Assembly (NCBI GenBank): GCA_963751455.1
Contig: CAVVUN010000015.1
Location: 384,001-448,000, forward strand
DNA from: Nitrospirota bacterium
Lineage (GTDB): Bacteria > Nitrospirota > UBA9217
Reading direction: 5' to 3'
Length of the DNA stretch: 64,000 bases
In this document: piece by piece, positions 25,476 to 52,938 of the stretch
Layout of the letters: each line of letters begins with the position of its first letter
How positions within the stretch are numbered: the first letter of the stretch is position 1
Program-made: the position numbers and the translations under genes
Notes under the pieces: model-generated
Database searches by the model: none
The model's input: only the letters and a program-made list of their open reading frames with translations
Told to the model about the DNA's origin: nothing

Positions 25476-25717
25476 CCGCGGATGCACACACCCTTCACTC
25501 GAAATATCGCAATACTTAGACCCTTTGTTGACCATCGCACTAAGAAACGTGTGACGGGAATCAAGGACCGCAGAGACGGGAATCAAGGACCTCATAAACG
25601 CGCCCTGTACTCGCGCTGTGCACTCGTGGCACTGGGTGCAGGCTGGGTGCAGGCGGATGGATGGCCACAGATAATCAATCAAGTTCTCATCCGTGCTAAT
25701 CTGTGTCAATCCGTGGC
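25476..25717. repeat. composite nested palindromic element
   Basis: CCGCGGAT...ATCCGTGG periodic host. An ACCC..GGGTGCAGGC element (25490-25654) sits inside it and itself contains a second copy (25602-25643) and a 17-bp direct repeat. Confidence 0.75.
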
Positions 25718-25769
25718 AAAAAAGTCTTAACGTTCTTGCTTTCAGCTCCGATTTTCCGTACGATGGATC

Positions 25770-26276
25770 ATGACCAGATACCGACCCCCACAGAAACCCG
25801 GCTCGAAGTACATTACGCCGGAAGGAAAAAAGCGTTTGAGCGATGAGTTCGAATACCTCTGGAGGGAAAAGCGTCCGGAGGTGACCGCGGCTCTTGCCGC
25901 GGCTGCTGCGGAAGGGGACCGCTCTGAAAACGCCGAATACATCTACCGCAAAAAGCAGCTGCGGGAAATCGATGCCCGCATTCATCACCTCAAAAACCGG
26001 CTGGAGCATATCGTAGTTGTCGACACCAAGCCTGACGATGAGTCCATAGTGTTCTTCGGCGCGTGGGTCCGGCTCGAAGACGAAGAAGGAAATGTGAGCG
26101 AGTACCGCATCGTCGGACCCGATGAGTTCCACCATACCCCCGGGTCAATCAGCATGGACGCTCCTATGGCGCGTGCGTTAATGAGGAAGTCCGAGGGCGA
26201 AGAAGTTATTGTGAAACGTCCCAAGGGAGATGCAGTGTTCACGATAGTAAAAGTGCAGTACAAGCCGTTCAAATAG
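25770..26276 (+). CDS. greB: transcription elongation factor GreB
   Basis: YITPEG, LW..KRPEVT, GDRSENAEY, VFFGAWV and ISMDAPMARAL motifs. Confidence 0.92.
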   Translation: MTRYRPPQKPGSKYITPEGKKRLSDEFEYLWREKRPEVTAALAAAAAEGDRSENAEYIYRKKQLREIDARIHHLKNRLEHIVVVDTKPDDESIVFFGAWVRLEDEEGNVSEYRIVGPDEFHHTPGSISMDAPMARALMRKSEGEEVIVKRPKGDAVFTIVKVQYKPFK

Positions 26277-26744
26277 CGGCACGCCCGAGCGTAAAGTTCA
26301 GGGAACCAGTTTCTTCCTGTACTGTACAGTCAGAGAGTATCGTGATTGGTATTGAGTACAACCGGTAATTGAGAGTCGATTGTCACTTAAATCATTCGAC
26401 ACCCAGAAGTGATTTTGCCAATTCTTTAATCCTCAATTCGCAATTGAAACAAAGGCATTTCTGTGCTATTCTCGCTTCAATGGCGGCCGGAAATCCCTTC
26501 CTTGTTTCCGCATCTGCGTCCTCTCCTGCAATAGTGACGATTGAACTTGATTGGTTTGAACGTCCGTGCAACAATCTATTGAAATTTTTTTTTGTTGCTT
26601 GATTTCATATTCCCAGGCCTGCATGAGAGTAAAACTTACAAAAAAATAACAAGATGCTCAACTCGCACGACACATTCCTGAACATACAGCAGGTCCTACC
26701 CTGAGAGAACAAGATCGGCGGACGACGCATGGAATTTAGATACT

Positions 26745-28199
26745 ATGTTTGAACAGTCATTCAAAAACATTGACGACGTCCTCTGGAAAGAGGCCGGCTG
26801 CACCACCGAGCTGGATTATACCGAGCAGACCTCGTGGCTTCTCTTCCTGAAGTACCTCGATGACCTGGAGCAAGATAAGAAGACCGAAGCTGAGTTGGAG
26901 GGTAAGAAATACACCTTCATCCTCGACAAAGACTACCGATGGGAAAGCTGGGCTGCGCCCAAGGGCAAAGACGGCAAACTCGACCATAACAAAGCTCTGA
27001 CCGGAGACGATCTGCGCGACTTTGTGGATCGCAAGCTCTTTCCGTATCTGCACAAGTTCAAGCAGAAGGCAAGCGGACCGAACACGATCGAGTACAAGAT
27101 CGGTGAAATATTCGGGGAGATTAAAAATAAGATTCAGAGCGGCTACAACTTGCGGGAGATCATCGACCACATAGACGAACTGCATTTCCGCTCACAGAAC
27201 GAGAAACACGAGCTGTCAGACCTCTATGAGGCCAAGATCAAGAACATGGGCAATGCTGGCAGGAATGGCGGCGAGTATTACACCCCGCGTCCACTTATCC
27301 GCGCAATCGTTCATGTAATCAAGCCCAAAATGGGAGAGCAGATCTATGATGGCGCTGTCGGATCGGCAGGGTTCTTGTGCGAAGCGTTTGATTATCTCAA
27401 GGCAAAGAAGAACCTGACCACGAAGGACCTCAAAACGCTTCAAGAACGCACCTTTTACGGGAAGGAAAAGAAGTCCCTTGCCTATGTTATTGCGATCATG
27501 AATATGATCCTGCACGGCATCGAAGCGCCGAACATCATCCATACCAACACACTCTCCGAGAATCTTGCCGACATTCAGGAGAAGGACCGCTATGACGTGG
27601 TGCTGGCCAATCCGCCCTTTGGCGGCAAGGAGCGCAAGGAAGTGCAGCAGAACTTTTCGATTCGCACCGGCGAGACCGCCTTTCTCTTCCTTCAGCACTT
27701 CATCAAAATTCTGAAGGCGGGTGGGCGCGGCGGTGTGGTCATCAAGAACACCTTCCTCTCGAACACTGACAACGCCTCGGTGAGTTTGCGCAAGATGCTG
27801 CTTGAAAACTGCAACCTGCAAACCGTGCTCGATTGTCCCGGCGGCACGTTTCAGGGCGCGGGTGTGAAGACCGTGGTGCTGTTCTTTGAAAAAGGCGCGT
27901 CCACCCGCAAGGTCTGGTATTACCAGCTTGATCCCGGCCGCAATCTTGGGAAGACCAACCCGCTCAATGACACCGACCTCGCTGAGTTTGTGAAACTGCA
28001 AAAGACCTTTGCTGACTCGCCCAAGAGTTGGAGCGTTGATACGAAAAACATCGACAAGACAACCTTTGACCTCTCCGTGAAGAACCCGAACGGCGGCGAG
28101 GAAGTAAAGCACCGCAACCCAAAAGAGATTATGAAGGAAATCGCCGCGCTGGATGCAGAGAGCGCGAAGGTGCTGACGAGGATTCGGGAGCTGCTATGA
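26745..28199 (+). CDS. hsdM: type I R-M methyltransferase subunit (N6-adenine)
   Basis: GEYYTPRP, YDGAVGSAGFL and ANPPF motifs. Confidence 0.95.
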   Translation: MFEQSFKNIDDVLWKEAGCTTELDYTEQTSWLLFLKYLDDLEQDKKTEAELEGKKYTFILDKDYRWESWAAPKGKDGKLDHNKALTGDDLRDFVDRKLFPYLHKFKQKASGPNTIEYKIGEIFGEIKNKIQSGYNLREIIDHIDELHFRSQNEKHELSDLYEAKIKNMGNAGRNGGEYYTPRPLIRAIVHVIKPKMGEQIYDGAVGSAGFLCEAFDYLKAKKNLTTKDLKTLQERTFYGKEKKSLAYVIAIMNMILHGIEAPNIIHTNTLSENLADIQEKDRYDVVLANPPFGGKERKEVQQNFSIRTGETAFLFLQHFIKILKAGGRGGVVIKNTFLSNTDNASVSLRKMLLENCNLQTVLDCPGGTFQGAGVKTVVLFFEKGASTRKVWYYQLDPGRNLGKTNPLNDTDLAEFVKLQKTFADSPKSWSVDTKNIDKTTFDLSVKNPNGGEEVKHRNPKEIMKEIAALDAESAKVLTRIRELL

Positions 28200-28858
28200 A
28201 AAAAAATGGGAATAATGAGAACTCTGTGAAAAATGGGAGTCATGGGAGGAAGCCTTCTCATAACTCGCATAATTCCCCTGATTCCCAGCCCTCGATTTTG
28301 CCTCCGAGAGGCGATTATAAGACCTTGCTCTCTTACCAGAAGTCAGAGGTTGTCTATGAAATAACCTACCGCTTTTGTAGCCGATTCCTCGCCAAAGGCG
28401 ACCGCACCATTGATCAAATGGTGCAGGCTGCCCGATCAGGAAAGCAAAACATCATTGAGGGCAGCAAAGCCGCTGTGACTTCAAAGGAGACCGAGATAAA
28501 ACTGACGAATGTCGCGCGTGCAAGCCTGGAGGAATTGCTTGAGGATTATCGGGATTTTCTGCGCGTGCGCGATATGCAGATCTGGGACAAAGACAGCCGC
28601 GAAGCGCTCTATGTCCGTGAGTTGAGCAAGACGACTCCTCTGACGTTTGATGTCTTTCGCGAATTTGTGGAAACCCGCCCAGCAGAGGTCGTGGCCAATA
28701 TCGCCATCTGCCTGATTCACCAGGCCAACTACCTGCTCGACCAGCAACTCAAAGGACTCGAAAAAGCGTTCCTCAAGGATGGCGGCTTGCGGGAACGGAT
28801 GACGCGCGCCCGCCTGCAGATGCGGGATCAGCAGCGCAAAGGGCGGGCAAAGATATGA
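28196..28858 (+). CDS. four-helix-bundle (23S IVP/Avd-like) suffix-domain protein
   Basis: GDYKTLLSYQKS, RTIDQMVQAARSGKQNIIEG, VARASLEELLEDY and FLKDGGLRERMTRAR motifs; ATGA overlaps with both hsdM and hsdS. Confidence 0.88.
   Translation: MKKNGNNENSVKNGSHGRKPSHNSHNSPDSQPSILPPRGDYKTLLSYQKSEVVYEITYRFCSRFLAKGDRTIDQMVQAARSGKQNIIEGSKAAVTSKETEIKLTNVARASLEELLEDYRDFLRVRDMQIWDKDSREALYVRELSKTTPLTFDVFREFVETRPAEVVANIAICLIHQANYLLDQQLKGLEKAFLKDGGLRERMTRARLQMRDQQRKGRAKI
28206..28287. repeat. 9-nt periodic palindrome inside the four-helix-bundle gene
   Basis: Five ATGGGAA-like units at 28206, 28215, 28224, 28233 and 28242, followed by four TTCCCAT-like inverted units. Confidence 0.75.
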
Positions 28859-30702
28859 AGGCGGGATGGCAACATAAAAAGATCGGCGATTTGTGCGAGG
28901 TCATTGCGGGCCAATCGCCTGATGGAAATTTTTACAACTCCGACGGCAAGGGAAAGCCCTTCTACCAAGGGAAAAAAGGCTTCGGAGAGAAGTTAATCGG
29001 AGCCCCGACGACGTGGACGACTCAAGTTACAAAGATTGCCCAAAAGGGAGACATCCTGATGTCGGTGCGTGCTCCTGTTGGGCCAGTGAACTTCGCAACC
29101 GATGAGATATGCATTGGCAGAGGCTTAGCCGCAATACGCAGCAATCCTGAACTTGACCGTGATTTTCTATTTTACCAAATGCTGCATTTGCAACCCACGA
29201 TTGCAGGTAAGGAAGGAGCGGTCTTCGCCTCAATCAGCAAATCGGAAATTGAAGCCTTACCTCTCTCTTTCCCGCCGCTCCCCGAACAGCGGCGTATCGT
29301 CGGAATCCTTGACGAAGCGTTGGATGGCATCGCCATTGCCAAAGCCAACGCCGAAAAGAATCTCCAAAACGCCCGCGCCCTGTTTGAAAGCCACCTGCAA
29401 GCCGTCTTCATTCAGAGCGGTCACGGGTGGGAGGAGAAGCGGTTGGGTAACGAGAGCCTGATAGAAATCGTTGATGGCGACCGAGGAGTAAATTACCCAA
29501 AAGCCACAGATTTTCATGATGAGGGCGACTGCCTCTTTTTGAACACGAAGAATGTCCGACCTGATGGTTTCGACTTTACGTCCACTATGTTTATTACGGC
29601 GAAAAAAGATGGACAGCTTCGTAAAGGTAAGCTCAAACGAGACGATGTTGTTCTGACAACACGTGGCACCATTGGTTATGTCGGGCATTACTCGGAAGAC
29701 GTTCCATTCGACGATATCCGAATCAATTCGGGAATGCTCATTTTTCGACCTAACAAACGCTCACTGCTGCCCTCGTTTCTCTTTGAGCTGCTGAGGTCTG
29801 AAATCGTGAAGGAGCAGATAAAGAAGTACACGACTGGCGCAGCACAACCACAGTTACCAATAAAAACACTGGTCAACTTCACGATCCCAGTTCCTAAAGA
29901 TCTCAAAGATCAACGTGCCCTCGTTGCAAAACTGCGTGCTTTTGAACCAGAAACCCAACGCCTCGCCTCTTTCTACCAGCAAAAACTTGCCGCGCTCGCA
30001 GAGCTGAAAAAATCCCTCCTTCACCAAGCCTTCTCCAGCGAGCTGACCAAGGCTTCGGTAAAAGCCGCCGTCATTCCGTTCCCCATAGCCATATCCAATA
30101 TCACCACGACTGATCTTCACGCAGGCATTCTCGCCATGGCATATCAAATGCACGAAAAGCATGGGAGGCAAAGCAACTACGGGCATGTGAAAGCGGAAAA
30201 GATAGCCCACATGATCGAGGCTTATGTGGGTATAGATCTCGGACGAAACCCGGTCAAGGACGCAGCCGGGCCGAATGACTTTCAGCATCTAATGAAGGTC
30301 GAGTCTCGGGCGCGCAAGGCCCGCTTTTTCGATTTCAAGCGGGTCAAGGGTTCAGCCTACCGAGTCACCAAGTACCGACAATTCGACTCGTTGATCACGC
30401 GAGCACGGCAGGCGCTTGGAGATCGCATAGCCGCAGTAGACCGCTTGCTCGCATTCATGTTGCCGATGGATACGCAACAGGCCCAGATATTCTGCACAGT
30501 GTACGCCGCTTGGAACAATCTTATGCTGGACCAGCAGCAGCCTATCACCGACGAGCAAATTGTTCTCGAAGCAAGGGAGCACTGGCATCCCGAGAAGCTC
30601 AAAATTCCGCGCGGAAAATTTTTCAGCGCAATCGAATGGCTCAGAGAAAAGGGCCTCACTCCGCTGGGCAGAGGGAAAAAAGTAAACAGAAGGGCTAAGT
30701 AG
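28855..30702 (+). CDS. hsdS: type I R-M specificity subunit with an extra ~218-aa C-terminal domain
   Basis: Two TRDs, PPLPEQRRIV, and conserved LKKSLLHQAF; the ORF continues well beyond the normal end. Confidence 0.9.
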   Translation: MKAGWQHKKIGDLCEVIAGQSPDGNFYNSDGKGKPFYQGKKGFGEKLIGAPTTWTTQVTKIAQKGDILMSVRAPVGPVNFATDEICIGRGLAAIRSNPELDRDFLFYQMLHLQPTIAGKEGAVFASISKSEIEALPLSFPPLPEQRRIVGILDEALDGIAIAKANAEKNLQNARALFESHLQAVFIQSGHGWEEKRLGNESLIEIVDGDRGVNYPKATDFHDEGDCLFLNTKNVRPDGFDFTSTMFITAKKDGQLRKGKLKRDDVVLTTRGTIGYVGHYSEDVPFDDIRINSGMLIFRPNKRSLLPSFLFELLRSEIVKEQIKKYTTGAAQPQLPIKTLVNFTIPVPKDLKDQRALVAKLRAFEPETQRLASFYQQKLAALAELKKSLLHQAFSSELTKASVKAAVIPFPIAISNITTTDLHAGILAMAYQMHEKHGRQSNYGHVKAEKIAHMIEAYVGIDLGRNPVKDAAGPNDFQHLMKVESRARKARFFDFKRVKGSAYRVTKYRQFDSLITRARQALGDRIAAVDRLLAFMLPMDTQQAQIFCTVYAAWNNLMLDQQQPITDEQIVLEAREHWHPEKLKIPRGKFFSAIEWLREKGLTPLGRGKKVNRRAK

Positions 30703-30703
30703 G

Positions 30704-33097
30704 ATGAACGAAGCTGAAACCAGAGCCGAACATATTGATCCTGCCCTCAAGGCTGCGGGCTGGGGTATGGTGGATGGCAGCCGCATTCTGCGCGAGTATC
30801 CCATTACGCTGGGCCGACTCGAAGGCGCAGGTCGGCGCGGCAAAGCTCTCTCAGCTGATTATGTGCTGGTCTTTCGCAACCGTAAGCTTGCGGTCGTTGA
30901 GGCCAAGGCGTGGGATGAAGATCTGACCGAGGGCGTGGCGCAGGCGAAGAACTATGCGGAGAAACTGGCCATCCGCTACACATATTCCACGAACGGGCAG
31001 GGTATCTACGGCATTGACATGCAGTCCGGCAAGGAAGGCGAGGTGCCTCGCTACCCCACGCCAGAAGACCTCTGGAATTTGACCTTTTCCGAAGAAAACA
31101 TCTGGCGCGACCGTTTTGCTTCCGTGCCGTTCGAGGACAGAGGCGGCACCTATAGCGTGCGGTATTATCAGGACATCGCCATTAACAGGGTGATGGACGC
31201 CATAGCCGAAAACAAATCGCGCATCTTGATAACACTGGCGACCGGTACGGGCAAAACCTTCATTGCCTTCCAGATCGCCTGGAAGCTCTTTCACAGTCGT
31301 TGGAACCTGAACCGCGAAGCCACACGCCGACCGCGTATCCTGTTTCTCGCCGATCGCAATATCCTGGCAGACCAGGCTTATAATGCCTTCTCCGCTTTCC
31401 CAGAAGATGCGCTGGTGCGGATTGCGCCGGATGACATCCGCAAGAAGGGCAGAGTCCCGAAGAACGGCAGCTTGTTCTTTACAATCTTTCAAACCTTCAT
31501 GAGCGGGCCGCCCGTGGATGGCAAGCCGTCCCCCTATTTCGGCGAGTATTCTTCGGATTTCTTCGATTTCATCGTCATCGACGAGTGTCATCGTGGCGGC
31601 GCGAACGACGAGAGCAACTGGCGCGGCATCATGGATTACTTCGCCCCTGCCGTGCAACTCGGGCTCACCGCAACACCCAGGCGCAAGGACAACGCGGATA
31701 CTTACGCCTACTTTGATGATCCGGTATATATCTATTCTCTTAAAGAAGGCATCAACGACGGTTTCTTGACGCCATTTAAGGTGAAACAGTTTGCCACTAC
31801 GCTGGATGAATATGTCTATACATCAGATGACACCTTGGTCGAAGGCGTAGTAGAATCGGGCAGGCTTTATACGGAGCCGGATTTTAATAAGATCATCGAG
31901 ATCGACGTGCGTGAAGCCTACAGGGTAAAGTTGTTCATGGAGCAGATCAACCAGAAGGAAAAGACGCTGGTATTTTGCGCTAACCAGGCCCATGCTCTGG
32001 CTGTGCGAGACCTTATTAATCAGATGAAGACGAGCAGGGAGCCGAACTATTGTGTTCGTGTAACGGCGAATGACGGCGCGCTCGGTGACCAGTACCTGAG
32101 AGAATTTCAGGACAACGAAAAGAGTATCCCAACGATTCTGACCACCTCGCAAAAACTTTCGACGGGCGTGGACGCACGAAATATCCGAAACATTGTGCTG
32201 ATGCGGCCGATCAACTCGATGATTGAGTTCAAGCAGATTATTGGGCGCGGAACCCGGCTGTTTGACGGCAAGGATTACTTCACGATTTACGATTTTGTGA
32301 AAGCGCACCACCACTTTAGCGATCCGGCATGGGACGGGGAACCGTTAGAACCAGAGCCGTGCTCGAAATGTGGAGAAAGACCGTGCGTCTGTGAAAAAAG
32401 GCCGCCTCAACCCTGCAAGGTCTGCGGCAAGCAACCTTGCGTTTGTATAAAGGAGCCTTGTGCGATATGCGGCCAACGACCTTGTGGATGCAAGAAGAAA
32501 GCGAAGGTAAAGCTGGCCGACGGTAAGGAGCGAACTATTCAGCATATTATGGTGACGACTTTCTGGGGGCCGGATGGAAAGCCTCTGTCTGCTGCGCAAT
32601 TTTTGGAGAGTCTGTTCGGGACGCTGCCTGAATTCTTCCAGGACGAGGACGAGTTGAGAAAGATATGGAGTGTTCCTAATACTAGGAGGAAATTCTTAGA
32701 GGGTTTGGCTGACAAAGGTTTTGGAAGAGAACCATTGGCAGAGATGCAGAAGATCATCGAAGCTGAAAAGAGCGACCTTTTTGATGTCCTCGCCTATGTT
32801 GCCTTTGCGCTGCAGCCGGTGACCCGTGAAGAACGGGCGAATAAGGCAAAGACGGTCATCCATGTTCAGTTCAACGATAAACAACAGGCTTTCTTAGATT
32901 TTGTGCTGGCGCAATATGTAAAAGAGGGCGTTGACGAGTTGGATCAAGCAAAGCTTACGCCGCTTCTGCGGCTGAAGTATCGTGATTCACTTGCGGATGC
33001 CGTGGCCGATCTTGGTCCGGCGACTGAAATCGGCAAGGTGTTCAGCGGCTTTCAGAAGTATCTTTATCAACATACGGGGGGAACTGCGGGACGTTGA
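30704..33097 (+). CDS. hsdR: type I restriction subunit R (EcoAI-like)
   Basis: MNEAETR...ID, ADYVL...VVEAK, ATGTGKT, DECHR, GLTATP and QIIGRGTR motifs, plus an EcoEI_R_C-like tail. Confidence 0.95.
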   Translation: MNEAETRAEHIDPALKAAGWGMVDGSRILREYPITLGRLEGAGRRGKALSADYVLVFRNRKLAVVEAKAWDEDLTEGVAQAKNYAEKLAIRYTYSTNGQGIYGIDMQSGKEGEVPRYPTPEDLWNLTFSEENIWRDRFASVPFEDRGGTYSVRYYQDIAINRVMDAIAENKSRILITLATGTGKTFIAFQIAWKLFHSRWNLNREATRRPRILFLADRNILADQAYNAFSAFPEDALVRIAPDDIRKKGRVPKNGSLFFTIFQTFMSGPPVDGKPSPYFGEYSSDFFDFIVIDECHRGGANDESNWRGIMDYFAPAVQLGLTATPRRKDNADTYAYFDDPVYIYSLKEGINDGFLTPFKVKQFATTLDEYVYTSDDTLVEGVVESGRLYTEPDFNKIIEIDVREAYRVKLFMEQINQKEKTLVFCANQAHALAVRDLINQMKTSREPNYCVRVTANDGALGDQYLREFQDNEKSIPTILTTSQKLSTGVDARNIRNIVLMRPINSMIEFKQIIGRGTRLFDGKDYFTIYDFVKAHHHFSDPAWDGEPLEPEPCSKCGERPCVCEKRPPQPCKVCGKQPCVCIKEPCAICGQRPCGCKKKAKVKLADGKERTIQHIMVTTFWGPDGKPLSAAQFLESLFGTLPEFFQDEDELRKIWSVPNTRRKFLEGLADKGFGREPLAEMQKIIEAEKSDLFDVLAYVAFALQPVTREERANKAKTVIHVQFNDKQQAFLDFVLAQYVKEGVDELDQAKLTPLLRLKYRDSLADAVADLGPATEIGKVFSGFQKYLYQHTGGTAGR

Positions 33098-33256
33098 TGT
33101 TTTTTGTTGCAAAGAAGACTTAGAGGATGAAGGTCACAGGGACAATAGTAGAGCCTATTAGAGGACTTTGAGATTGACATTTTAAATTGACGAAAACGTT
33201 TATTTCAACCAGTAATTGATAATTGAAGTTCCCTCTGGCGAAGTGAACAGTTAGCA

Positions 33257-33541
33257 GGTGAAATCAATAACCGTTTTTTCTCAATGTGCTCCGGTGACCT
33301 TATTTTTTCCACGATTTTGGGAGAACGCCCTCTGAATCTTATTCTTTTGTTTCCTGAAGATTTTATCCATGGCACAAATCGCGTACGGCTTGAAGGCCGA
33401 CGGTTAAAGCACGTGTTTGAAGTCCATCGGGCGAAGATCAATGACGAGCTTTGCGTCGGACTCATGAATGACCGGATCGGGACGGGACGGATCTCCGCTC
33501 TCAAGCTCCTGAATGCCTTTCGGGTGGAGAAAAGCTATTGA
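33257..33541 (+). pseudogene. rsmE: truncated, internally deleted copy of the rsmE upstream region and 5' half
   Basis: Highly similar to 38012-38260, then jumps to the LLNAFRVEKSY segment (~38405-38440) and stops. Confidence 0.85.
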
Positions 33542-33578
33542 AAACTTCTTGGGGTCAAAAACTTCTTGGGGTCAGGTC
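33541..33578. repeat. 17-bp perfect tandem repeat ending in GGGGTCAGGTC
   Basis: AAAACTTCTTGGGGTCA twice (33541-33557, 33558-33574), exactly at the rsmE' breakpoint. Confidence 0.8.
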
Positions 33579-33755
33579 CATACTGTTGGACTTTTCCTTA
33601 AAACGTCCCACCTTGAAAAATCTGCTTTGTTAAAAGCAACACTTGTAGGTATCAATTAAGACGAAGAACAATCCGGGACGTTGATACGCAACGTGCAAAA
33701 AACCATCTGAGTAGAGCCGACGAAATCGTTCAGCCCAACCACGCCCTGATACTCT

Positions 33756-33977
33756 TTAATCCAACAGCGTTTCCCATCGGCAACCAATCGCTCTTTGAAT
33801 TCTTTTTGCCGTGGTTAAGAGAATATTGGTTTGTCCCGCCTCAATTTTTTGAACAGTCCTCACGTTTAAAAAGGTAAGCTCTGCGAGTTTTTCCTGGGTG
33901 ATATTGCGTGCGGTTCTTTCTCGCCGCAAATTCTCGCCGAAAAGCTTTAATTCTTTTTGTATTTGTTTTTTATTCAT
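33756..33977 (-). CDS. XRE/Cro-C1 HTH transcriptional regulator (controller-protein-like)
   Basis: FGENLRRER...TQEKLAE...TVQKIEAGQTN...IQRAIG; ATG at 33977. Confidence 0.88.
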   Translation of the reverse strand: MNKKQIQKELKLFGENLRRERTARNITQEKLAELTFLNVRTVQKIEAGQTNILLTTAKRIQRAIGCRWETLLD

Positions 33978-34034
33978 ACGCCCTATTATGCCGTAAAATA
34001 ATTCTTGACAACACGGCATGATAGGGCGTAAAGT
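33977..34034. promoter_or_regulatory. operator palindrome overlapping divergent promoters
   Basis: TACGCCCTATTATGCCGT / ACGGCATGATAGGGCGTA (17/18 inverted match) with TTGACA in the spacer and TAAAGT at 34029. Confidence 0.7.
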
Positions 34035-34118
34035 AATTTATTGTGGATCGCGTTTCTCAGACCCAAAATCGAGATAAATAAATGGAAAAATAAGTAACCG
34101 CGTGTTTGGGGGTCTATC

Positions 34119-34376
34119 GTGAGCACATCGAAGAAACGGGTGAAATCACTGCGAAGAAGACAGCCGGTAACGCTGGACATGATCGATCAGGCCAATGTGG
34201 ACATTGATTTTGTCGAAAGCTTCATAGATCTGCTTTCCATTGTCAGCGAGGCGGCACAGCTTGACGGCGTCAGAAGCAGCGCAATAACTTGCATGTGCAG
34301 CCAGTCGAAAATCAGGATAGACGCGATTAAAGGATTTATAAGAAGCCTTCCGGGGTGTACCGGGGTAAGCCCGTGA
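34119..34376 (+). CDS. small hypothetical helical protein
   Basis: 85-aa ORF divergent from the HTH gene, downstream of the TTGACA promoter. Confidence 0.5.
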   Translation: MSTSKKRVKSLRRRQPVTLDMIDQANVDIDFVESFIDLLSIVSEAAQLDGVRSSAITCMCSQSKIRIDAIKGFIRSLPGCTGVSP

Positions 34377-34413
34377 CCGGACTTTAGCTTGTAACCACAT
34401 AAAGGTCGGGTCA

Positions 34414-34776
34414 TGAAATATCACTTTTTAGTTTACAGACCTTGATCTCATTCCCCTGTTTTCCTTGATTCGTAATCCCGCGACTTAGCATCCCCCGGCC
34501 CTGCCGGGATGAAACGCGCTTACTCGCGCGTGGCTTCAACGAGCCAGGCTGTCGCGAGTGCGCAGTCCCGGGAGGTCGCGACTATTTAGACCCGACAAGT
34601 CGGGATGCCGGAGGGGGCTCCACTCAGCCAGCGGCCTTGCCCATATCGATCAGCATTTTTCGATCCTGATCGACTCTCATCTCCAGCAATGCAGAAGTTC
34701 TTCCTCGATCTTCACGAAATGTCTGAACGCTTCGATCAGCTTCGGGTCCTGCATGGCTTCCGCATCATGCCTGCCC
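34414..34776 (-). pseudogene. duplicated 3' gene fragment plus downstream DNA, copy 1
   Basis: Matches 35568-35779; the minus strand encodes a decayed ...EAFRHFVKIEEELL...RVDQDRKMLIDMGKAAG*. Confidence 0.75.
34474..34623. mobile_element. small palindromic non-autonomous element (IS200/IS605-end-like), copy A
   Basis: Absent from the paralogous fragment at ~35625. Shares AATCCCGCGACTT, GGGAGGTCGCG and TGCCGGAGGGGGCTCCAC with 59020-59128. Confidence 0.75.
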
Positions 34777-34850
34777 GTTCGATGTATTGACATCGGTCTG
34801 ATCCAAGCATATAGTCGTTACAGATAGTTTCATCGTATAGGAGACGTTAT

Positions 34851-36265: not shown

Positions 36266-36269
36266 AAGC

Positions 36270-45100: not shown

Positions 45101-48100
45101 GCTGCTTGGTATCCGGCAGCGTCCTCTCGGTTACGAATGCAAGCGGCACATGCATGGCAACAGCAACAAAAGCCGGGGATTCGAACTTCAATGAAGCGTC
45201 CTCTTCAGCGGCAACAATCACGCTGCAAAAGGCAGAACAGCAAACGCTCCTGGTCATTGCTCCCGAAACCCTTACATACGGGAACACGGCGACTTTGACG
45301 AGCAGCGGAGGCAGCGGCACGGGGGCTGTGTCATACAGCGCGGGTTCCTCAACAGGGTGTTCGGTGTCAGGCAGCATCCTTTCGGTAACGGATGCAAGCG
45401 GCACCTGCTCGGTGACAGCAACGAAATCGGTTGATAATAACTACAACGCAGTCGCCTCATCTTCAGCGACAATAACGCTGCAGAAGGCGATCCCTATCGT
45501 CACAGCATGGCCCACTGCAAGCGGTATCACTTACGGACAGCAGCTTTCCGCTTCGACGCTGAGCGGCGGCAGCGCATCGGTACCAGGCAGCTTTGCCTTC
45601 GCCGCGCCGTCTACGATACCGAATGCCGGTGTCTACAGTGCCGAGGTCACCTTTACGCCCATGGACACGATCAACTACAACACTGTGATCGGCACCGTGA
45701 ATGTTACAGTTGCCAGGGCAGACCAGGCAACGCTCTTGGTCATCGCTCCCGGAACTCTTACCTACGGGAGTACGGCAAGCTTGACCATCAACGGCGGCAG
45801 CGGTACGGGGGTTGTATCGTACAGTGTTGGTTCCTCGACAGGGTGCTCGGTATCCGGCAGCATTCTGTCGGTGACGAATGCAAGCGGCACATGCATGGTA
45901 ACAGCGTCGAAAGCCGCAGACAGCAACTATAATGCTGCAGCTTCATCCCCGGCCACAGTCTCACTGCTGAAAGCAGACCAGACAGCGCTCCTGGTCATCT
46001 CTCCCGCAAGCGTTACCTATGGGAGCACAGCGACCTTGACGAGCAGCGGCGGCAGCGGCATGGGAGCAGTGTCATACAGCGCCGGTTCTTCCACGGGGTG
46101 CTCGGTGTCCGGCAGCATTCTCTCAGTTACGAACGCAGGCGGCACGTGTTCAATAACAGCAACAAAGGCCGGAGATCCCAACTACAATGAAGCGTCCTCT
46201 TTAGCAGCCACGGTCATGCTGCGGAAAGCCAACCAGGCAGCGCTCGCGGTCATCGCTCCCGGAAGTCTTACCTATGGGACCACAACAGCCTTGACAAGCA
46301 GCGGCGGCAGCGGCACGGGAGCGGTCTCATACAGCGCTGGTTCTTCCACAGGGTGCTCGGTTTCCGGCAGCACTCTCTCGGTTACAAATGCAAGCGCCAC
46401 TTGCATGGCAACAGCGACAAAAGCCGGCGATTCCAACTACAATGAAGCGTCCTCTTTACCGGCCACGGTCACGCTGCAGAAGGCCAACCAGGAAACGCTC
46501 CTGGTCATTGCTTCTGCAACCCTTGTATACGGAAACACCTCAGGCCTGATGAGCAGCGGCGGCAGCGGGGATGGAGCGGTAACTTACAGTGCGGGTTCCT
46601 CCACAGGCTGTTCGGTGTCCGGCGGCATTCTCTCGGTTACGAACGCAGGCGGCACGTGTTCAATAACAGCAACAAAGGCCGGAGATCCCAACTACAATGA
46701 AGCGTCCTCTTCAGCAGCCACGGTCACGCTGCAGAAGGCAGAACAGCAAACGCTCCTGGTCATTGCTCCCGAAACCCTTACATACGGGAACACGGCGACT
46801 CTGACGAAGAGCGGAGGCAGCGGCACGGGCGCGGTGTCATACAGCGCGGGTTCCTCAACAGGCTGTTCGGTGTCAGGCAGCATCCTTTCGGTAACGGACG
46901 CAAGCGGCACCTGCACGGTGACAGCAACGAAAGCCGGAGACACCAACTATAATACAATAACTTCGCCGGAGGACACAATTTCCCTGCAAAAAGCGACGCC
47001 CACCGTGACGATATGGCCCCTGGCAAGCGGAATCACATATGGGCAGCAGCTTTCGGCCTCCACACTGACAAGCGGAAGCGGATCTATCCCGGGCAACTTC
47101 GGCTTCACTACGTCGGCTACAGCACCGAATGCCGGCATATACAGCGCAGCGGTTACCTTCACTCCCACGGATATGACGAATTACCTCACCGTAACCGGCT
47201 ACGTATATGTTGCGGTTGCAAGGGCGACGCCGACAATCACCTGGAATAACCCTGCGGACATCACCTATGGAACGGCCCTGGCCGGAGCTGAGTTGAATGC
47301 AGCCGCATCAGTACCCGGCACGCTCATCTATACCCCGGCTGCCGGTGTTGTGCTCACTGCGGCCGGCAACCAGACATTATCGGTGAACTTTACGCCGATT
47401 GACACGAGCAATTACAACGTCGCCTCGGCAACCGTCAGAATCAACGTGTTAAAGGCAGCAGCGACAGTGACGTTAGGCAATCTGAGCCGGATATATGACA
47501 CGACAGCCAGGAATGCCACAGGCACAACGGACCCGGCAGGGCTGACGATCGCGTTCACCTACAATGGCTCAGCCACACCGCCGATCAACGCAGGAAGTTA
47601 CACGGTGGTAGGAACAATCGAAGACACCAATTACCAGGGCAGTACAACCGGCACGATGACCATAGCAAAGGCGACCCCCACCGTGACGACATGGCCCCTG
47701 GCCGGCGAAATCACATACACGCAGCGGCTTTCCGCCTCGACGCTGAGCGGCGGCAGCGCATCGGCACCCGGCAGCTTTGCCTTCGCCGCGCCGTCTACAA
47801 TGCCGAATGCCGGCGTCTACAGCGCCGCGGTCGCCTTCGCGCCCATGGACACGATCAACTACAACACGGTGAGCGGCAGCGTGGACATTACGGTTTCGAA
47901 GGCGACTCCTGTTCTCACATGGAATAACCCTGGGGACATCACATATGGAGCGGCCCTGGGCGGAGCACAGTTGAATGCGACTGCATCAGTGCCGGGCAGC
48001 TTCATATACACACCCGCTGCCGGCACCGTCCTTCCGGCAGGCAACAGCCGGACATTATCCGCGGAGTTTACTCCGAGCGATACGAGTAACTACGACACCG

Positions 48101-50154
48101 TATCGGCAAGCGCTACAATCAACGTCTTAAAGGCAATTGCCGCAGTGACCTTAGACAACCTGGGCCATACGTACAACAGCACAGCCAAAAATGCAACAGC
48201 CGCAACAAATCCGGCTGGACTCACGGTCGCGTTCACCTATGATAGTTTGCCTACAGCGCCCACGAACGCCGGGAGCTACACCGTGGTGGGAACAATCGAA
48301 GACGAAAATTACCGGGGCAGCGCCGCCGGCACGATGACCATAGCAAAGGCGACCCCCGACGTGACGACATGGCCTCTGACAAGCGGAATCACATACACGC
48401 AGCAGCTTTCCGCCTCGACGCTGAGCGGCGGCAGCGCATCAATACCCGGCAGCTTTGCCTTCACCGCGCCGTCTACGATACCGAATGCCGGCGCCTACAG
48501 CGCTGCCGTCACATTCACGCCCACTGACGCCGCAAACTACAACACGGTAAACGGCAATGTGATTGTTGAAGTTGCCAGGGCAGACCAGGCAGCGCTGAGG
48601 GTAAGCGCTCCTGCAAGCCTTGCCTACGGAAACACGGCGACCTTGACAAGCAGCGGAGGCAGCGGTACGGGGCTTGTATCGTACAATGTTGGATCCTCGA
48701 CAGGCTGCTCGGTATCCGGCAACGTTGTCACCATTATAGCCGCAACCGGCACCTGTTGGGTAACGGCGGCGAAAGCGGCTGAGAGCAACTACAATGCAGC
48801 CATTTCACCGGCGGTTACCATTGTACCTCAGAAAGCCGGCCAGACGATTACATTCGGCGCGGTTACGGGCAAGATGTACGGAGATGCGCCGTTTATGGAT
48901 CCCGTAAGCTCAAATTCAGGCCTCGCTGTAAGCCTTATCAGCCTTACCGGCGATGTTTGTACGGCAGCCGATAATACCGTTACAATCCATGCTGCGGGAA
49001 CATGCACGCTCGAGGCTTCCCAGGGCGGAAATACGAACTATAATGCCGCACCCATCGTGAAACAGTCTTTCACGGTTGCCAAGGCCAACCAGGCTATCAC
49101 CTTCGGTTCGCTCCCCGGCAAGACAGTCGGAGACCCGGACTTCGCCCCAGGCGCTACGGCCAGCTCGGGGCTTCCGGTCTCCTACGCGAGCTCGCTCACG
49201 CAAATAGCGACGATCGTGGACGGAAACATTCATATATTGAAACCGGGGACAACGACGATCATTGCGTTCCAGGACGGTGACATGAATTATAACGCAGCGC
49301 CAAGCGTACAGCAGAGTTTTACGGTAAGTAACATAGCATCATTCATCGGCGGCGGCACGGGGGGGCGTGGTCGTTCTCATTGGCTAACATGGAGCGGGGA
49401 CCCATCGAGGGATAATACGATCAATTTTTACACTAAATTACTTTGCCCGTATGGCGACGCCTGTTCTTATAACTGGAACTTCGGCGATCCGGACTCGGGT
49501 CCGGCAAATACAACGACAGGGAGAACCGTCTTCCATACATTCAGCAGTTTCGGCACTTATAAGGTGATATTGAGTGTTACTGATGGCAGCAGGAGCCATA
49601 TGTACACTACTTCGGTATTCGTTAATACGAAACCGCTGGTGTCTCATGGTCCGATAACTACAGATCTCTATACCATAAGCTTTATTGACAAATCTTTATC
49701 CACAGATGGTGTAGCTCTGCCGAATAATGCAGTTACCGTATTTTGGGGGGACGGTGCGGTCTCACGGCAGAATGCGGGCACTGTTTTCACGCATACCTAC
49801 AAAAAGGCAAGAAAATTCAACGTCCTCCATACCGTGACCGACTCGGGAGATGAGCAGGGTCGAAGGAAGTTGAGGACTATCGAGAGGATAATGGTGTCGG
49901 TGCCCCAGAAGTTTACTGTGGAGGGGACTGTCAGCAAGAGAGGTGAAGGTCTTCCCCACGTGATTGTGTCGCTCACGTATAACGGGCGTACAAGGGCCAC
50001 TGCGAGGACAGATGCAAGCGGTAATTACATTTTCAAGAATGTTCTGCCGGGTGTGTATACGATAAAGGCATACAAGTATAACACGACCTTCTCGGACTTG
50101 CCGGATTCCATCACCGTGAATGCGGGTACGATATTAAACTTTACCGCACAATAG
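39181..50154 (+). CDS. giant (3657 aa) secreted S8 subtilase with Ig-like/MBG repeat stalk, PKD and carboxypeptidase-regulatory-like C-terminal domains
   Basis: Signal peptide and propeptide; catalytic VAVLDTG / NGHGT / GTSAS; about 19 two-Cys 85-aa repeats and other Ig-like modules; WNFGD and VFWGDG PKD motifs. Confidence 0.9.
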   Translation: MKIISLIYPRKSGWNHGRSITLIILVALLSLGAVFVPSAEASDETASLLVKMKNGLSPQEQAAVISRNGGTEKSSIPALRLHVVQIPANVLSTALSSYQFDSQVERAEINQTRKSEAMPSDPRYNEQWALPQISWDQVYGSVTTSGTATVAVLDTGIDASHPDLSGVLVPGTSILDLSTGMTDSNGHGTWMAGIIAAVPNTEGIAGVAFSGVRVMPVAVLGEDGTGWDSDIIAGVMYAADHGADVILMGFSNPGFSQGLQDAIDYAWSKNAVLVAATGNDRSGTPTYPAGDRGVVGVSATNAEDILADFSNYGEDAFLAAPGTNILTTNLTGTYTPYTPVTGTSASAAIVAGVAAFMRAVDPSLTNGVIVGRLAGTADPAGSENQTGNGRVNMARAVSSTATESIQPVGIPGGGPILGPYVAGALVLRNVTLGSQNGTLASGTPGSVTFALTVTKVGGSGNAALTVTTPLPAGTSVSFSPDPLVFLDNGNYTETCTLTISTLSSTAASTTTFTLQTAASNAVTATGTLTIVKGTPIITWANPDNITYGTPLGDTQLNASASVSGTPSVPGSFSYTPAGGTVLSAGSGQGLHADFSPAEPNNYNTASADVQINVLKAPATVTLGNLSQTYDGTARNATATTSPEGLNVTFTYNGLSIAPNNAGTYTVIGTINETNYAGSATGTMIIDMVTPSVTTWPTASGITYGQPLSASSLTGGSASVSGSFAFTVPTTAPDAGAYSAAVTFTPTDTTNYNLVSGSVEVAIARANQETLLVIAPGTLTYGTTATLSSSGGSGNGAVSYSAGSSTGCSVSGSTLFVNNASGDCMVTATKAGDANYNEATSSAATVALQKASQATVALIAPAILTYGTTTTLSSSGGSGTGAVSYSVGSSTGCSASGSTLSVTNASGDCMVTATKAGDSNFNEASSSAATVALQKASQATVAIIAPGILTYGTTTTLSSSGGSGTGAMSYSVGSSTGCSVSGSILSVKNASGDCMVTATKAGDSNFNEASSSAATVALQKASQATVALIAPAILTYGTTTTLSSSGGSGTGAVSYSVGFSTGCLVSDSVLSVTNASGDCMVTATKAGDSNFNQASSSASTVMLQKAIPIVTAWPTASGITYGEALSLSTLTGGSPLVPGSFAFTSPSFIPNAGTYSASVSFTPADTTNYNIVYGSVYVVVAKVTPSVTTLPTASQITYGQQLSASTLTGGSASVSGSFAFTVPTTAPDAGAYSAAVTFTPTDTTNYNLVSGSVEVAIARANQETLLVIAPGTLTYGTTATLSSSGGSGNGAVSYSAGSSTGCSVSGSTLSVNNASGDCMVTATKAGDANYNEATSSAATVALQKASQATVVLIAPAILTYGTTTTLSSSGGSGTGAVSYSVGSSTGCSASGSTLSVTNASGDCMVTATKAGDSNFNEASSSAATVALQKASQATVAIIAPGILTYGTTTTLSSSGGSGTGAMSYSVGSSTGCSVSGSILSVTNASGDCMVTATKAGDSNFNEATSSAAAVALQKADQETLLVLAPGILTYGTTTTLSSSGGSGTGAVSYSVGSSTGCSVSGSILSVTNASGDCMVTATKAGDSNYNETSSSPATVSLQKAGPIVTTWPTASGITYLQPLSASTLTGGSASVPGSFAFSTPTMTPTAGTYSAPVNFTPTMEYRTNYTTVSGSVNVAVARADQEVLTINAPPTLAYGSTATLTTMGGSGTGVISYSTGSSTGCSVSGSILSVTDASGTCSITATKAGDVNYNEITSEQATVSLKRSNQQTLTIIAPGTLTYGTTATLSSSGGSGTGAVSYSVGSSTGCSISGSTLSVTNASSTCSVIAMKAADADYTEATSSAATVVLQKANQATLSAIAPGILTYGTTTALTSSGGSGTGAVSYSAGSSTGCSVSGSTLSVNNASGDCMVTATKAGDSNFNEASSSAATVTLQKANQATLLAVAPGILTYGTTATLSSSGGSGTGAVSYSVGSSTGCLVSGSVLSVTNASGTCMATATKAGDSNFNEASSSAATITLQKAEQQTLLVIAPETLTYGNTATLTSSGGSGTGAVSYSAGSSTGCSVSGSILSVTDASGTCSVTATKSVDNNYNAVASSSATITLQKAIPIVTAWPTASGITYGQQLSASTLSGGSASVPGSFAFAAPSTIPNAGVYSAEVTFTPMDTINYNTVIGTVNVTVARADQATLLVIAPGTLTYGSTASLTINGGSGTGVVSYSVGSSTGCSVSGSILSVTNASGTCMVTASKAADSNYNAAASSPATVSLLKADQTALLVISPASVTYGSTATLTSSGGSGMGAVSYSAGSSTGCSVSGSILSVTNAGGTCSITATKAGDPNYNEASSLAATVMLRKANQAALAVIAPGSLTYGTTTALTSSGGSGTGAVSYSAGSSTGCSVSGSTLSVTNASATCMATATKAGDSNYNEASSLPATVTLQKANQETLLVIASATLVYGNTSGLMSSGGSGDGAVTYSAGSSTGCSVSGGILSVTNAGGTCSITATKAGDPNYNEASSSAATVTLQKAEQQTLLVIAPETLTYGNTATLTKSGGSGTGAVSYSAGSSTGCSVSGSILSVTDASGTCTVTATKAGDTNYNTITSPEDTISLQKATPTVTIWPLASGITYGQQLSASTLTSGSGSIPGNFGFTTSATAPNAGIYSAAVTFTPTDMTNYLTVTGYVYVAVARATPTITWNNPADITYGTALAGAELNAAASVPGTLIYTPAAGVVLTAAGNQTLSVNFTPIDTSNYNVASATVRINVLKAAATVTLGNLSRIYDTTARNATGTTDPAGLTIAFTYNGSATPPINAGSYTVVGTIEDTNYQGSTTGTMTIAKATPTVTTWPLAGEITYTQRLSASTLSGGSASAPGSFAFAAPSTMPNAGVYSAAVAFAPMDTINYNTVSGSVDITVSKATPVLTWNNPGDITYGAALGGAQLNATASVPGSFIYTPAAGTVLPAGNSRTLSAEFTPSDTSNYDTVSASATINVLKAIAAVTLDNLGHTYNSTAKNATAATNPAGLTVAFTYDSLPTAPTNAGSYTVVGTIEDENYRGSAAGTMTIAKATPDVTTWPLTSGITYTQQLSASTLSGGSASIPGSFAFTAPSTIPNAGAYSAAVTFTPTDAANYNTVNGNVIVEVARADQAALRVSAPASLAYGNTATLTSSGGSGTGLVSYNVGSSTGCSVSGNVVTIIAATGTCWVTAAKAAESNYNAAISPAVTIVPQKAGQTITFGAVTGKMYGDAPFMDPVSSNSGLAVSLISLTGDVCTAADNTVTIHAAGTCTLEASQGGNTNYNAAPIVKQSFTVAKANQAITFGSLPGKTVGDPDFAPGATASSGLPVSYASSLTQIATIVDGNIHILKPGTTTIIAFQDGDMNYNAAPSVQQSFTVSNIASFIGGGTGGRGRSHWLTWSGDPSRDNTINFYTKLLCPYGDACSYNWNFGDPDSGPANTTTGRTVFHTFSSFGTYKVILSVTDGSRSHMYTTSVFVNTKPLVSHGPITTDLYTISFIDKSLSTDGVALPNNAVTVFWGDGAVSRQNAGTVFTHTYKKARKFNVLHTVTDSGDEQGRRKLRTIERIMVSVPQKFTVEGTVSKRGEGLPHVIVSLTYNGRTRATARTDASGNYIFKNVLPGVYTIKAYKYNTTFSDLPDSITVNAGTILNFTAQ
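41240..43680 (+). repeat. recent internal duplication (1482-bp offset) plus 255-bp tandem units
   Basis: ~41240-42200 is nearly identical to ~42722-43680; shadow ORFs recur every 255 bp. Confidence 0.85.
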
Positions 50155-51247: not shown

Positions 51248-51504
51248 AGCCACACCCCGCACTCGCGCAGAATGCACTCCTTGCGCCGGGTGCAGGCGGA
51301 TGGACACGGATCGACTGGGATGAGGACCGAGAATCCGGTTTGCCGCGAATGATCTCGAATAAAAGCGAATTAATTGTGAAATCATGAATTACTTTGAGAA
51401 CTTTGCAGTTGTTTTCTTTTCATCTTTTATTCGCGAATATCCGCGTTCATTCGCGGCATGGTAGTTTTCGCTTTTATCCGTGTATTTCAGTGTTTATCCG
51501 TGGC
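51248..51504. repeat. composite nested palindromic element between ABC genes
   Basis: Outer CCAC..GGATGGACACGGAT/ATCCGTGG arms, inner GCCGCGAAT/ATTCGCGGC arms, and a 44-bp ACCC..GCAGGC insertion at 51254-51297. Confidence 0.8.
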
Positions 51505-51956
51505 AAAAAAGAATTTAGCTTCTTAGTCCTTTTCCCGTCAATGCAATGAACAGGTCCTCAAGGCTCCAGGAGCGCATATTCATCCGGTTCAGTGAGACGC
51601 CCCGTTCGATAAGCGTCCTGATTGTTCCGTCCACATCGTTCGTCTGGATTTCGCACCAGCCCAATGCACTCCTTGCGCCGGGTGCAGGCGGATGGACACG
51701 GATGAGGACCGAGAATCCGGTTTGCCGCGAATATCCGCGTTCATTCGCGGCATGGTAGTTTTCGCTTTTATCCATGTATTTCAGTGTTTATCCGTGGCAA
51801 AAAAGAATTTAGCTTCTTAGTCCTTTTCCCGTCAAGGCAATGAACAGGTCCTCAAGGCTCCAGGAGCGCATATTCATCCGGTTCAGTGAGACGCCCCGTT
51901 CGATAAGCGTCCTGATTGTTCCGTCCACATCGTTCGTCTGGATTTCGCACCAGCCC
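51271..51956. repeat. imperfect tandem duplication (392 bp + 294 bp) including the 3' end of the ABC ATPase
   Basis: 51271-51662 versus 51663-51956; the second copy lacks 10-bp and 88-bp segments and differs by 2 SNPs. Confidence 0.88.
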
Positions 51957-52693
51957 GCCTGCTTTGAAACGCAGAGACCGAGTCCCTCAAACTTCCCGTT
52001 GAGATCCTGCTCGGGAAACTCGAGCACGATGTTTCCGAAATGCTCCTTCAGCAACCGCTCCGGTGTGCCCTGCGCGACGATCTTCCCGCGGTCCATGATC
52101 GCTATTTCATCGCAGAGCGTATAGGCCTCGTCCATGTAGTGGGTTGTCAGTACGATTGTTTTATTTCTCGATTTTATGAGATTAATGAGGTCCCAGAAAT
52201 TGCGGCGTGACTGGGGATCCAGTCCGGTCGTCGGCTCGTCGAGAAACAGAATTTCAGGATCGTTGATGATCGCAACCGCCATGAGCAGCCGCTGCCGCTG
52301 CCCGCCAGAAAGCTTTTTGGTGTCGCGGTCAAGAAATTCCTCGAGAGAGCAGAGGCGGATCACGTCGTCGAGTTCCAGTGTCCTGGGGTACAGGTTCTTG
52401 AAGAGCTTCAGCGTCTCGCGGACGGTCAGAAATTCCTGGAGCGCGGTGACCTGGAACTGGATGCCGGCTTCCCTGCGAAATTGCGGGCCCTGCGGAGCGC
52501 CTTTGTAAAGAATGACGCCTGAATCAGGAGATTTGATGGCTTCCATCATCTCGATGACGGTCGTTTTTCCGGCGCCGTTCGGCCCGAGCAGGCCGAAGCA
52601 TATTCCCTGCCTGATGCTCAGGGTCAGCCCGTCGACTGCGCGGACGCCGGGATACAGCTTGACCAGATTTTTCACCTCGATTACGGGAACCAT
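51809..52693 (-). CDS. ABC transporter ATP-binding protein
   Basis: GPNGAGKT, LSGGQRQR, LDEPT and TTH motifs. Confidence 0.95.
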   Translation of the reverse strand: MVPVIEVKNLVKLYPGVRAVDGLTLSIRQGICFGLLGPNGAGKTTVIEMMEAIKSPDSGVILYKGAPQGPQFRREAGIQFQVTALQEFLTVRETLKLFKNLYPRTLELDDVIRLCSLEEFLDRDTKKLSGGQRQRLLMAVAIINDPEILFLDEPTTGLDPQSRRNFWDLINLIKSRNKTIVLTTHYMDEAYTLCDEIAIMDRGKIVAQGTPERLLKEHFGNIVLEFPEQDLNGKFEGLGLCVSKQAGWCEIQTNDVDGTIRTLIERGVSLNRMNMRSWSLEDLFIALTGKGLRS

Positions 52694-52827
52694 GACTTGA
52701 AACTACCACGAGGGGGTTGATACTGTCAAGCCGGGGAAATAATGGTCTTGAGTCAAGGTCGATATTCGTGTAAAGTAGCCCATAGTTGCTTTGGCGTTTT
52801 ATAGCTGCGAGCTCCTGCTTTGTCAAG

Positions 52828-52938
52828 CCGCGGATGGACACACCCTGCACTTGCGACGGAGCACGCCTCAACGCTGGGTGCGGGCTGATGGTCGCGGACT
52901 GATCCATTTTATCCGTGTAATCCGTGTAAGTCCTGGGC
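52828..52938. repeat. periodic palindrome with nested 44-bp element
   Basis: CCGCGGATGGACAC[ACCCTGCAC...GGGTGCGGGC]TGATGG...ATCCGTGTAATCCGTGTAAGTCC. Confidence 0.78.

Follow-up and report, generated by a model that had tools for sequence, protein, structure and literature searches.

Can a stretch of DNA that holds no gene move by itself from one hairpin to another and, if so, in what form and by means of which enzyme? The question is raised by a window of 64,000 nt (the whole stretch of DNA analysed here, positions 384,001–448,000 of contig CAVVUN010000015.1 in the Nitrospirota assembly GCA_963751455.1), in which a gene-less DNA unit, termed element A, interrupts inverted repeats at several places. 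A preliminary description of the window had regarded it as a minimal mobile element moved by an enzyme possibly of the HUH/Y1 type. The reading favoured here, with a probability of about 0.5, is that A inserts at a single bond in the target YR^C (the caret marks the cut), adopts a hairpin fold on one of its strands and travels as a closed circle of single-stranded DNA, handled by an HUH (Y1-type)-like enzyme that is encoded elsewhere. Coordinates of A are given throughout with its ends one base to the left of those in the preliminary description.

Copies of A were numerous in this genome (5.7 Mb, referred to as G000). A profile built from 43 strict copies gave 163 matches at E ≤ 0.01, compared with two (E 1.2 and 4) in the reversed genome. 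The genome search with a covariance model that had been suggested in the preliminary description confirmed a dispersed family, with at least 147 copies among the 150 candidates scored. For counting, 162 anchored copies were reduced to 145 by an end-base filter, at least two of which look like chance matches. Lengths were 31–33 and 39–50 nt with modes at 31 and 42–45 nt, and 133 of the 145 copies were intergenic by a rough gene call. Across genomes, an exact pattern for A matched 30 of 56 from the family of this bacterium, in 13 genera, and none of 194 from other families of the phylum; the covariance model added three family members that the exact pattern had missed and gave no match in 15 other-family genomes. 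Matches in genome collections were labelled Nitrospirota nearly throughout, and single copies in two genomes labelled otherwise were not counted as spread outside the family. A was also present at three bacterial-virus loci (L141–L143, two contigs), between phage-like genes.

Element A is almost certainly a real mobile unit. Its minimal, non-coding and mobile nature, as first proposed, was supported by precise insertions, varied hosts and pairs of empty and filled sites, and near-identical empty and filled sites agreed exactly with insertion without target duplication, as had also been proposed. Three tandem blocks of 97.6 % identity (contig C15:158.3–158.8 kb) included two filled blocks and an empty one in the middle, paralogues at 95 % identity differed by exact gaps of 43 and 44 nt, and a 31-nt copy at metagenome locus L226 was matched by an empty spacer in G000, with about 80 % identity across both flanking genes. 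Rebuilt empty sites gave a junction-spanning alignment in 60 of 302 cases, many of them loose, and only four aligned cases are relied upon. Several genes in the assembly look split, so that the empty middle block and other single-copy details may stem from strain mixture or faulty assembly; even then, an exact empty allele would show variation at the site. That A is not mobile alone and owes its spread entirely to duplication or conversion of composites of host and insert is highly improbable. Twenty of 29 near-identical element pairs do share a host, and one host family has the same variant at one site several times, but the remaining nine pairs lie in different hosts, five different sites were hit within one host family, the empty and filled pairs are exact and the same target rule holds in other genomes. 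Descent of all copies from one duplicated composite with identical flanks, which the preliminary description had considered, is contradicted by the finding that 140 of the 145 flank contexts were distinct. Composite copying as the sole route is largely refuted and holds for a subset of copies only.

The ends of the element were located by removing each copy and searching for the rejoined 16-mer elsewhere, which gave a sharp optimum at no duplication (36/104). A C at both junctions leaves one base of the end register open. For the 25 copies that start with T, known empty junctions were recovered only if the T was assigned to the element (8 and 3 matches), compared with none under the register of the preliminary description, and only the corrected register restores the empty block among the three tandem blocks. 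The ends were therefore placed one base to the left and the target at YR^C, since the T-start copies and the tandem-block case fit only that register. A target duplication of 1 nt was ruled out by the T-start copies, and no identity was seen that would make the tail a copy of the target flank. Purines follow the target. Of the 145 sites, 122 have Y at −2, 122 have R at −1 and 134 have C at +1; C was also present at +1 in 105 of 109 and in 48 of 52 foreign copies. Exceptions to this rule include one exact empty and filled pair with A at +1. The target CAC^(G/T)GATGG, as initially read from the window, fits only four of the 145 sites. In genome G181, three identical copies within 3.5 kb (L208–L210) lie at a site off YR^C and have a mismatched first pair.

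The donor predicts the target, as there was a link between the start base of the element and the flanking base which held in two separate sets and in several host families. A G stood before 15 of the 25 own T-start copies and 24 of the 28 foreign ones, and before 25 of the 120 own and 19 of the 151 foreign C-start copies; the copies are related, so P-values for this link are too small. The bases at the cut need no match between donor and target, as a circle would have G^C, G^T or A^T at its junction and the target is mostly A^C. This lack of homology at the cut argues against recombinases which test overlap homology, and fits a single break-and-join. The donor–target link recalls the guide-dependent choice of sites by HUH enzymes (PMC8266576).

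Base pairing was derived from covariation, and the irregular hairpin that resulted is very probably correct. Mutual information first indicated pairs that were absent from the stem proposed in the preliminary description. Among 140 unique copies, double changes were found at seven pairs, each exceeding all shuffles (0/1000), for example C-G 113 and T-A 23, C-G 117 and G-C 22, C-G 109 and T-A 17, or C-G 73 and T-A 20. In a structure alignment of 40 copies chosen to cover the variants, 96 % of cells were paired, with 48 double changes and 7 of 13 pairs compensated (0/500 shuffles as high), compared with at most 50 % of cells in slid control structures, and RNAalifold yielded the same covarying structure unaided. 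The end stem CCTGCAC/GTGCAGG, as previously drawn, showed a single double change, with 469 of 500 shuffles as high, and was rejected. From 5' to 3', the folded strand comprises a 4-nt foot (CCTG, CTTG, TTTA and others), 5 bp, an A·A mismatch, 2 bp, a 4-nt bulge and 2 bp, followed by a GNNA loop in the 31-nt form or by tandem G·A pairs, 4 bp and a variable loop in the long form. This strand-specific, irregular hairpin lies on the strand opposite to the written one. Unpaired variants at four pairs were G·T on the bottom strand in 31 cases compared with 9 on the top strand, one position was T·G on the bottom strand in 101 of 124 copies, and the tandem G·A pairs lie within a CGAG block, a motif solved by nuclear magnetic resonance (PMC10085684). 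The bottom strand is favoured as the folded strand because of this wobble bias and the CGAG block with its tandem G·A pairs.

With the mobility, ends, target and base pairing of A established from the copies themselves, a closed single-stranded DNA intermediate has about an even chance of being the form that moves. The first and fourth bases of the tail covary (C-G 126, T-A 12, other 2 of 140). These complementary bases would form a lone pair in the chromosome, but a pair stacked on the terminal stem once the ends are joined, which lends a circle indirect support. Folded as a circle, the strand would carry g-CCTG-c at one end and, in the 31-nt form, c-GCAA-g at the other; of the four stable DNA tetraloop motifs that a reference title in PMC10085684 names, these match two. 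The apical loop in the metagenome set was partly fixed by the search pattern. Once its two ends were joined, the foot would become a capping loop of the stem and the element a dumbbell. A strand cut at the fixed bond may then be exchanged with a cut in an exposed strand of the host, with no need for overlap homology, and replication would fix the insertion. The enzyme that cuts and joins is predicted to be encoded elsewhere and to act like an HUH (Y1-type) transposase. A bolder version, which is rather unlikely to hold in full, is that the 31-nt closed single-stranded dumbbell with its two extra-stable tetraloops is a complete mobile element, that its terminal pair sets the adjacent landing base, that its mover lies outside the known transposase families and is possibly a core host enzyme, and that any similar hairpin-and-tail micro-elements in other phyla belong to the same class.

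A number of observations weigh against movement of A as a single-stranded circle by a Y1-like enzyme. No circle or end-to-end junction was found, with no head-to-tail copies of A in the genome. T-start copies would close the loop with an A-T pair, outside the gCNNGc motif, and about 20 of the 145 copies have five-base tails. None of the 33 Y1 matches in G000 was flanked by the ends of A, only one copy of A lay within 1.5 kb of 30 Y1 and three IS110 loci, Y1 was present in 23 of 30 carriers and in 25 of 26 non-carriers, and the single-contig genome G076 has seven copies of A and no Y1 match. Mean nearest-neighbour energies for DNA (−7.27 and −7.25 kcal/mol) favour neither strand. The covarying stem was part of the minimum-energy fold of the single sequence in only 48 of 140 bottom strands and in 43 of 140 treated as circles; sheared pairs are modelled poorly by these energy parameters. 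One stem pair is A·C on the folded strand in 30 of 140 copies, and the related copies are not independent, so that the P-values overstate significance. Finally, the written, unfolded strand tends to be the sense strand (69:35), in leading (58:25) and lagging (13:6) genes alike, and the G-rich strand (77:50).

The HUH/Y1 guess of the preliminary description was neither borne out nor excluded by the search for an enzyme, as no Y1 gene with these ends was found and Y1 was not enriched in carriers; that an enzyme of the Y1 family itself is the mover is possible, but doubtful. When ends were paired within 8 kb, six pairs lay more than 170 nt apart, all with unrelated or unmatched ends; a gene enclosed by ends of A, or an autonomous form bearing an open reading frame (ORF), was not found. 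The three IS110 matches in G000 had no copy of A nearby, and Y2/IS91 transposases gave no match in G000, but none in control genomes either. Genes for GIY-YIG, DUF559, four-helix-bundle, GxxExxY and reverse transcriptase proteins were located in G000, and the flanks of the GIY-YIG and DUF559 genes inspected there were not A. Foreign A loci had ordinary genes beside them and no recurrent enzyme. Among the alternatives, movement of the folded strand as a minimal cassette by an integron integrase or another tyrosine recombinase is quite unlikely. Such integrases recombine folded single strands with unpaired bases (mentioned in PMC8266576), and matches to the integron integrase model (TIGR02249, E < 1e-60) were found in 21 of 30 carriers compared with 8 of 26 non-carriers (Fisher P = 0.007). 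However, the covariance model turns three of these ‘non-carriers’ into carriers, two of which lack the integrase, G009 with its 20 copies has a partial match only, and G076 has no match to Y1, the integron integrase or GxxExxY at the thresholds used. The trend for GxxExxY was similar (26/30 and 17/26), so that shared lineage can explain the association, kin not being independent. A also has no GTT/AAC box and no overlap homology at the cut, and wherever an array is present at the seven integrase loci, its repeats are of the ordinary attC-like type, with no copy of A at those loci. The integron integrases of this bacterial family (L146–L150) are about 460–495 aa in length and lie beside short attC-like arrays.

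Movement as a side reaction of a core host enzyme, such as a type IA topoisomerase, or a hairpin nuclease (for example an Ssn-type GIY-YIG enzyme) together with a ligase, would require no dedicated transposase and is unlikely, if less so than the integrase. A has long been resident in one family of 13 genera, G076 carries it with none of the candidate genes named above, and both the missing ORF-bearing form and the absence of a recurring neighbour enzyme at foreign loci are in keeping with this explanation. A universal enzyme alone, however, leaves the restriction to one family unexplained (0/194 other genomes). Topoisomerase I prefers C at −4, which fits the circle junction but only 34 of the 145 targets. 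Some hosts of A are the type of hairpin that flanks small GIY-YIG genes in this genome, and Ssn nucleases cut single strands near such repeats (PMC11893778), but their demonstrated activity is cutting and not joining. About as improbable as the integrase is a moving form that consists of a small RNA, reverse-transcribed back or spliced into transcripts. The structure is equally valid as RNA, and six reverse transcriptases are present in the genome. GCAA and GCGA belong to the GNRA class, and CUUG is likewise familiar as a loop in RNA. Such loops suit an RNA form, as does the orientation that tracks transcription in leading and lagging genes. Yet the loops of 5 of the 14 own 31-nt copies are GCTA or GCCA, which are not GNRA, the folded strand is mostly antisense, and there were no intron-like ends and no target duplication. 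The 7-nt hosts themselves lean to the sense strand (48:28) and thus share part of the sense lean of A, so that orientation does not decide between DNA and RNA.

Insertion into other hairpins and into its own copies, which had been claimed from the window, was supported genome-wide. Periodic repeats of 7–9 nt hosted 59 of the 145 sites, compared with 159 of 1500 control sites. A REP-like family near Y1 genes was hit at five positions and on both strands, its other copies being empty, and a second dispersed family with known empty copies was hit in both orientations; a fixed orientation relative to the host is therefore not supported. The REP-like family consists of two hairpins, flanks Y1 genes (contigs C9:365971-366610, C15:1661839-1662440 and C15:1721989-1722630 of G000), is also dispersed alone and is a frequent host of A. 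One copy of A (G000 C2:443057-443098; L144 9058) lies upstream of the gene for a group II intron reverse transcriptase, near an integron integrase. By a rough pattern count, about 31 of the 145 copies lie inside another A, and five copies lie inside element B, a second gene-less hairpin unit of about 59 nt. Empty sites folded somewhat better than controls (median z −1.55 compared with −0.56). Targets lay in a perfect short hairpin at 31 of the 145 sites and 204 of the 1500 controls, and in a hairpin loop or one pair before it at 21 sites and 87 controls; a structural target rule based on the local hairpin position of the cut is not established by those counts. Element B formed 68 clusters of half-motifs in the genome; it occurred by itself, within A, nested in other B copies and as head-to-tail arrays with as many as six units (window 25512-25590; C15:1572329, C15:1354233, C14:11426 and others in G000); 13 simple units were available, and they do not fix its ends. 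The 7-nt unit of periodic repeats in which A lies in G000 is also present on a Nostoc plasmid (L211), as is a four-helix-bundle gene.

Within the window, the covariance model recovered three full copies of A at E 1e-12 to 2e-6 and nothing else below E 0.8. All are written on the + strand, the folding strand being the − strand, and single copies fold no better than their own shuffles (z −1.5 to +1.5). The sequences of the three copies that had been listed were present, both ends lying one base further to the left than listed. The expanded outer copy (25489–25653, + strand, placed by sequence and end register) is likewise present, but its apical part holds the different element B in addition to a self-insertion. 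The B insert (25512–25590, + strand) comprises one unit and the 3' arm of another and is probably a deleted form of the B-in-B composite seen intact elsewhere. The inner copy of A (25601–25642, + strand, 42 nt, 58.4 bits with the covariance model) interrupts the outer copy in its 3' arm, at CG^C, and its empty junction was found nine times elsewhere in the genome. Their host (25476–25716) is a 9-nt periodic inverted repeat upstream of greB, with its purine-rich arm interrupted. A 44-nt copy (51253–51296, + strand, 45.2 bits) interrupts, at CA^C, a 9-nt periodic inverted repeat (51250–51503) in which another inverted repeat is nested; this host lies between the genes for an ABC permease and an ABC ATPase. 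A diverged 44-nt copy (52841–52884, + strand, 34.1 bits) lies at CA^C in a 9-nt periodic inverted repeat identified by sequence (52828–52938), upstream of arfB. Each of the three outer copies splits a 9-nt periodic host and lies on the + strand, with no duplication, as had been described; the surrounding genes (greB, the ABC transporter pair and arfB, all by NCBIfam) are ordinary.

The partial copy reported at 51663 is present as the 3' half of A (51663–51688, + strand), but it is not an independent insertion. A BLAST comparison of the blocks showed that it marks the start of a tandem duplication, in which 51271–51662 is repeated at 51663–51956 with internal deletions (99 % identity over 231 nt); this duplication, too, may reflect mixed strains or assembly errors. 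The duplicated sequence (51271–51956) includes the 3' end of the ABC ATPase gene, and stretches lying between short direct repeats are missing from its second copy. Elsewhere in the window, a Uup-like ABC-F gene (55277–56915) and an RsmE-like gene (38033–38798) gave partial model matches, each overlapping a neighbouring ORF; they look frameshifted, perhaps through assembly errors. An ORF of 3657 aa (39181–50154) has a subtilisin-like protease domain near its start and contains 19 copies of an 85-aa repeat (255-nt period). The region 26745–36993 contains type I restriction-modification genes (M, S and an EcoAI-family R), followed by weak matches to NYN-domain and AbiEi-antitoxin proteins.

Rfam gave no match in the window at the gathering score and, in nine sources, none on the element at E ≤ 1. 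No description of the family was found in a literature search, most subscription journals and Elhai 2008 lying outside its scope. Micro-elements that parasitise other hairpins and have no transposase were noted earlier, in cyanobacteria in 2008 and in haloarchaea in 2011, and how they move was left open. To the accounts drawn on here the A family adds exact ends, a target rule, a covariation-based fold assigned to one strand, a minimal form of 31 nt and natural variants whose target preference is altered, and these features make the mechanism testable with one synthetic oligonucleotide and a cell extract. If the reading holds, an enzyme capable of joining a tiny folded circle to single-stranded DNA in the absence of homology would be a useful tool, and a 31-nt dumbbell would be among the smallest possible mobile elements.

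Compared with known systems, A lacks the defining features of attC sites, MITEs, REP/REPIN and PATEs, and differs from SMR-A by size. Integron attC sites are folded single strands with unpaired bases, one strand being favoured. A resembles them in all three respects, but has no RYYYAAC/GTTRRRY boxes and no gene, and does not lie at integrase loci. MITEs share terminal inverted repeats with a transposon and duplicate their target; A has no target duplication, a 4-nt unpaired end and no ORF-bearing partner within 8 kb. REP/REPIN sequences with their RAYT enzymes are short, strand-specific hairpins with a 4-nt foot and functional irregularity, intergenic and non-autonomous (PMC8266576, PMC3733652, PMC3116915). 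These properties are shared by A, which differs in having no GTAG or CGTC tag, a foot that varies while keeping its own pairing, single units rather than doublets and no flanked transposase gene; it inserts into REP-like repeats rather than being one. PATEs have no target duplication, no transposase and a palindromic structure (PMC3119063). With these and the IS200/IS605 elements A shares the lack of target duplication and a short target motif (YR^C), but it forms one hairpin of the whole unit instead of two subterminal ones. The single-strand circle is known for IS200/IS605, whereas for A it is suggested indirectly by the covariation of the tail; the conserved target base of A is also on the 3' side as written, and the ends of Y1 elements in the genome are dissimilar.

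The closest likenesses are to the small dispersed repeats (SDR) of Nostocaceae and the small mobile repeats SMR-A. Elhai et al. 2008 (Genome Res 18:1484) are said to have described self-nesting of SDR, heptamer hosts and a structure derived from compensatory changes; SDR are reportedly 21–27 nt in size, and SDR5 is said to insert into HIP1. Set against these features, A is like SDR in being very small, gene-less, precisely inserted into other repeats and into itself, and lineage-restricted, but it belongs to another phylum, measures 31–45 nt compared with the reported 21–27 nt, and uses many hosts at YR^C. The A model gave no match on one Nostoc plasmid, and no split HIP1 repeat was seen in 50 kb of that plasmid, which is a weak test. 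Papers that cite this work likewise describe SDR in Nostocaceae as very small, gene-less units of one lineage with precise insertion into another repeat (PMC4390886, PMC5861425, PMC3116915). SMR-A of Haloquadratum walsbyi has no transposase and no target duplication, lies inside palindromes of other mobile elements and depends on a mobiliser described as enigmatic; it is about 110 bp long with prominent terminal inverted repeats, its copies are more than 95 % identical and seldom lie within one another (1 of 114; PMC3119063). The lack of target duplication and the choice of palindromes of other elements as targets are found in A as well, but A has a third of that length, its foot is unpaired, its hairpin contains mismatches and a bulge, and it lies far more often inside another copy of itself. 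In its behaviour A resembles these little-described SDR and SMR-A elements, being tiny, gene-less, inserted without duplication and aimed at repeats.

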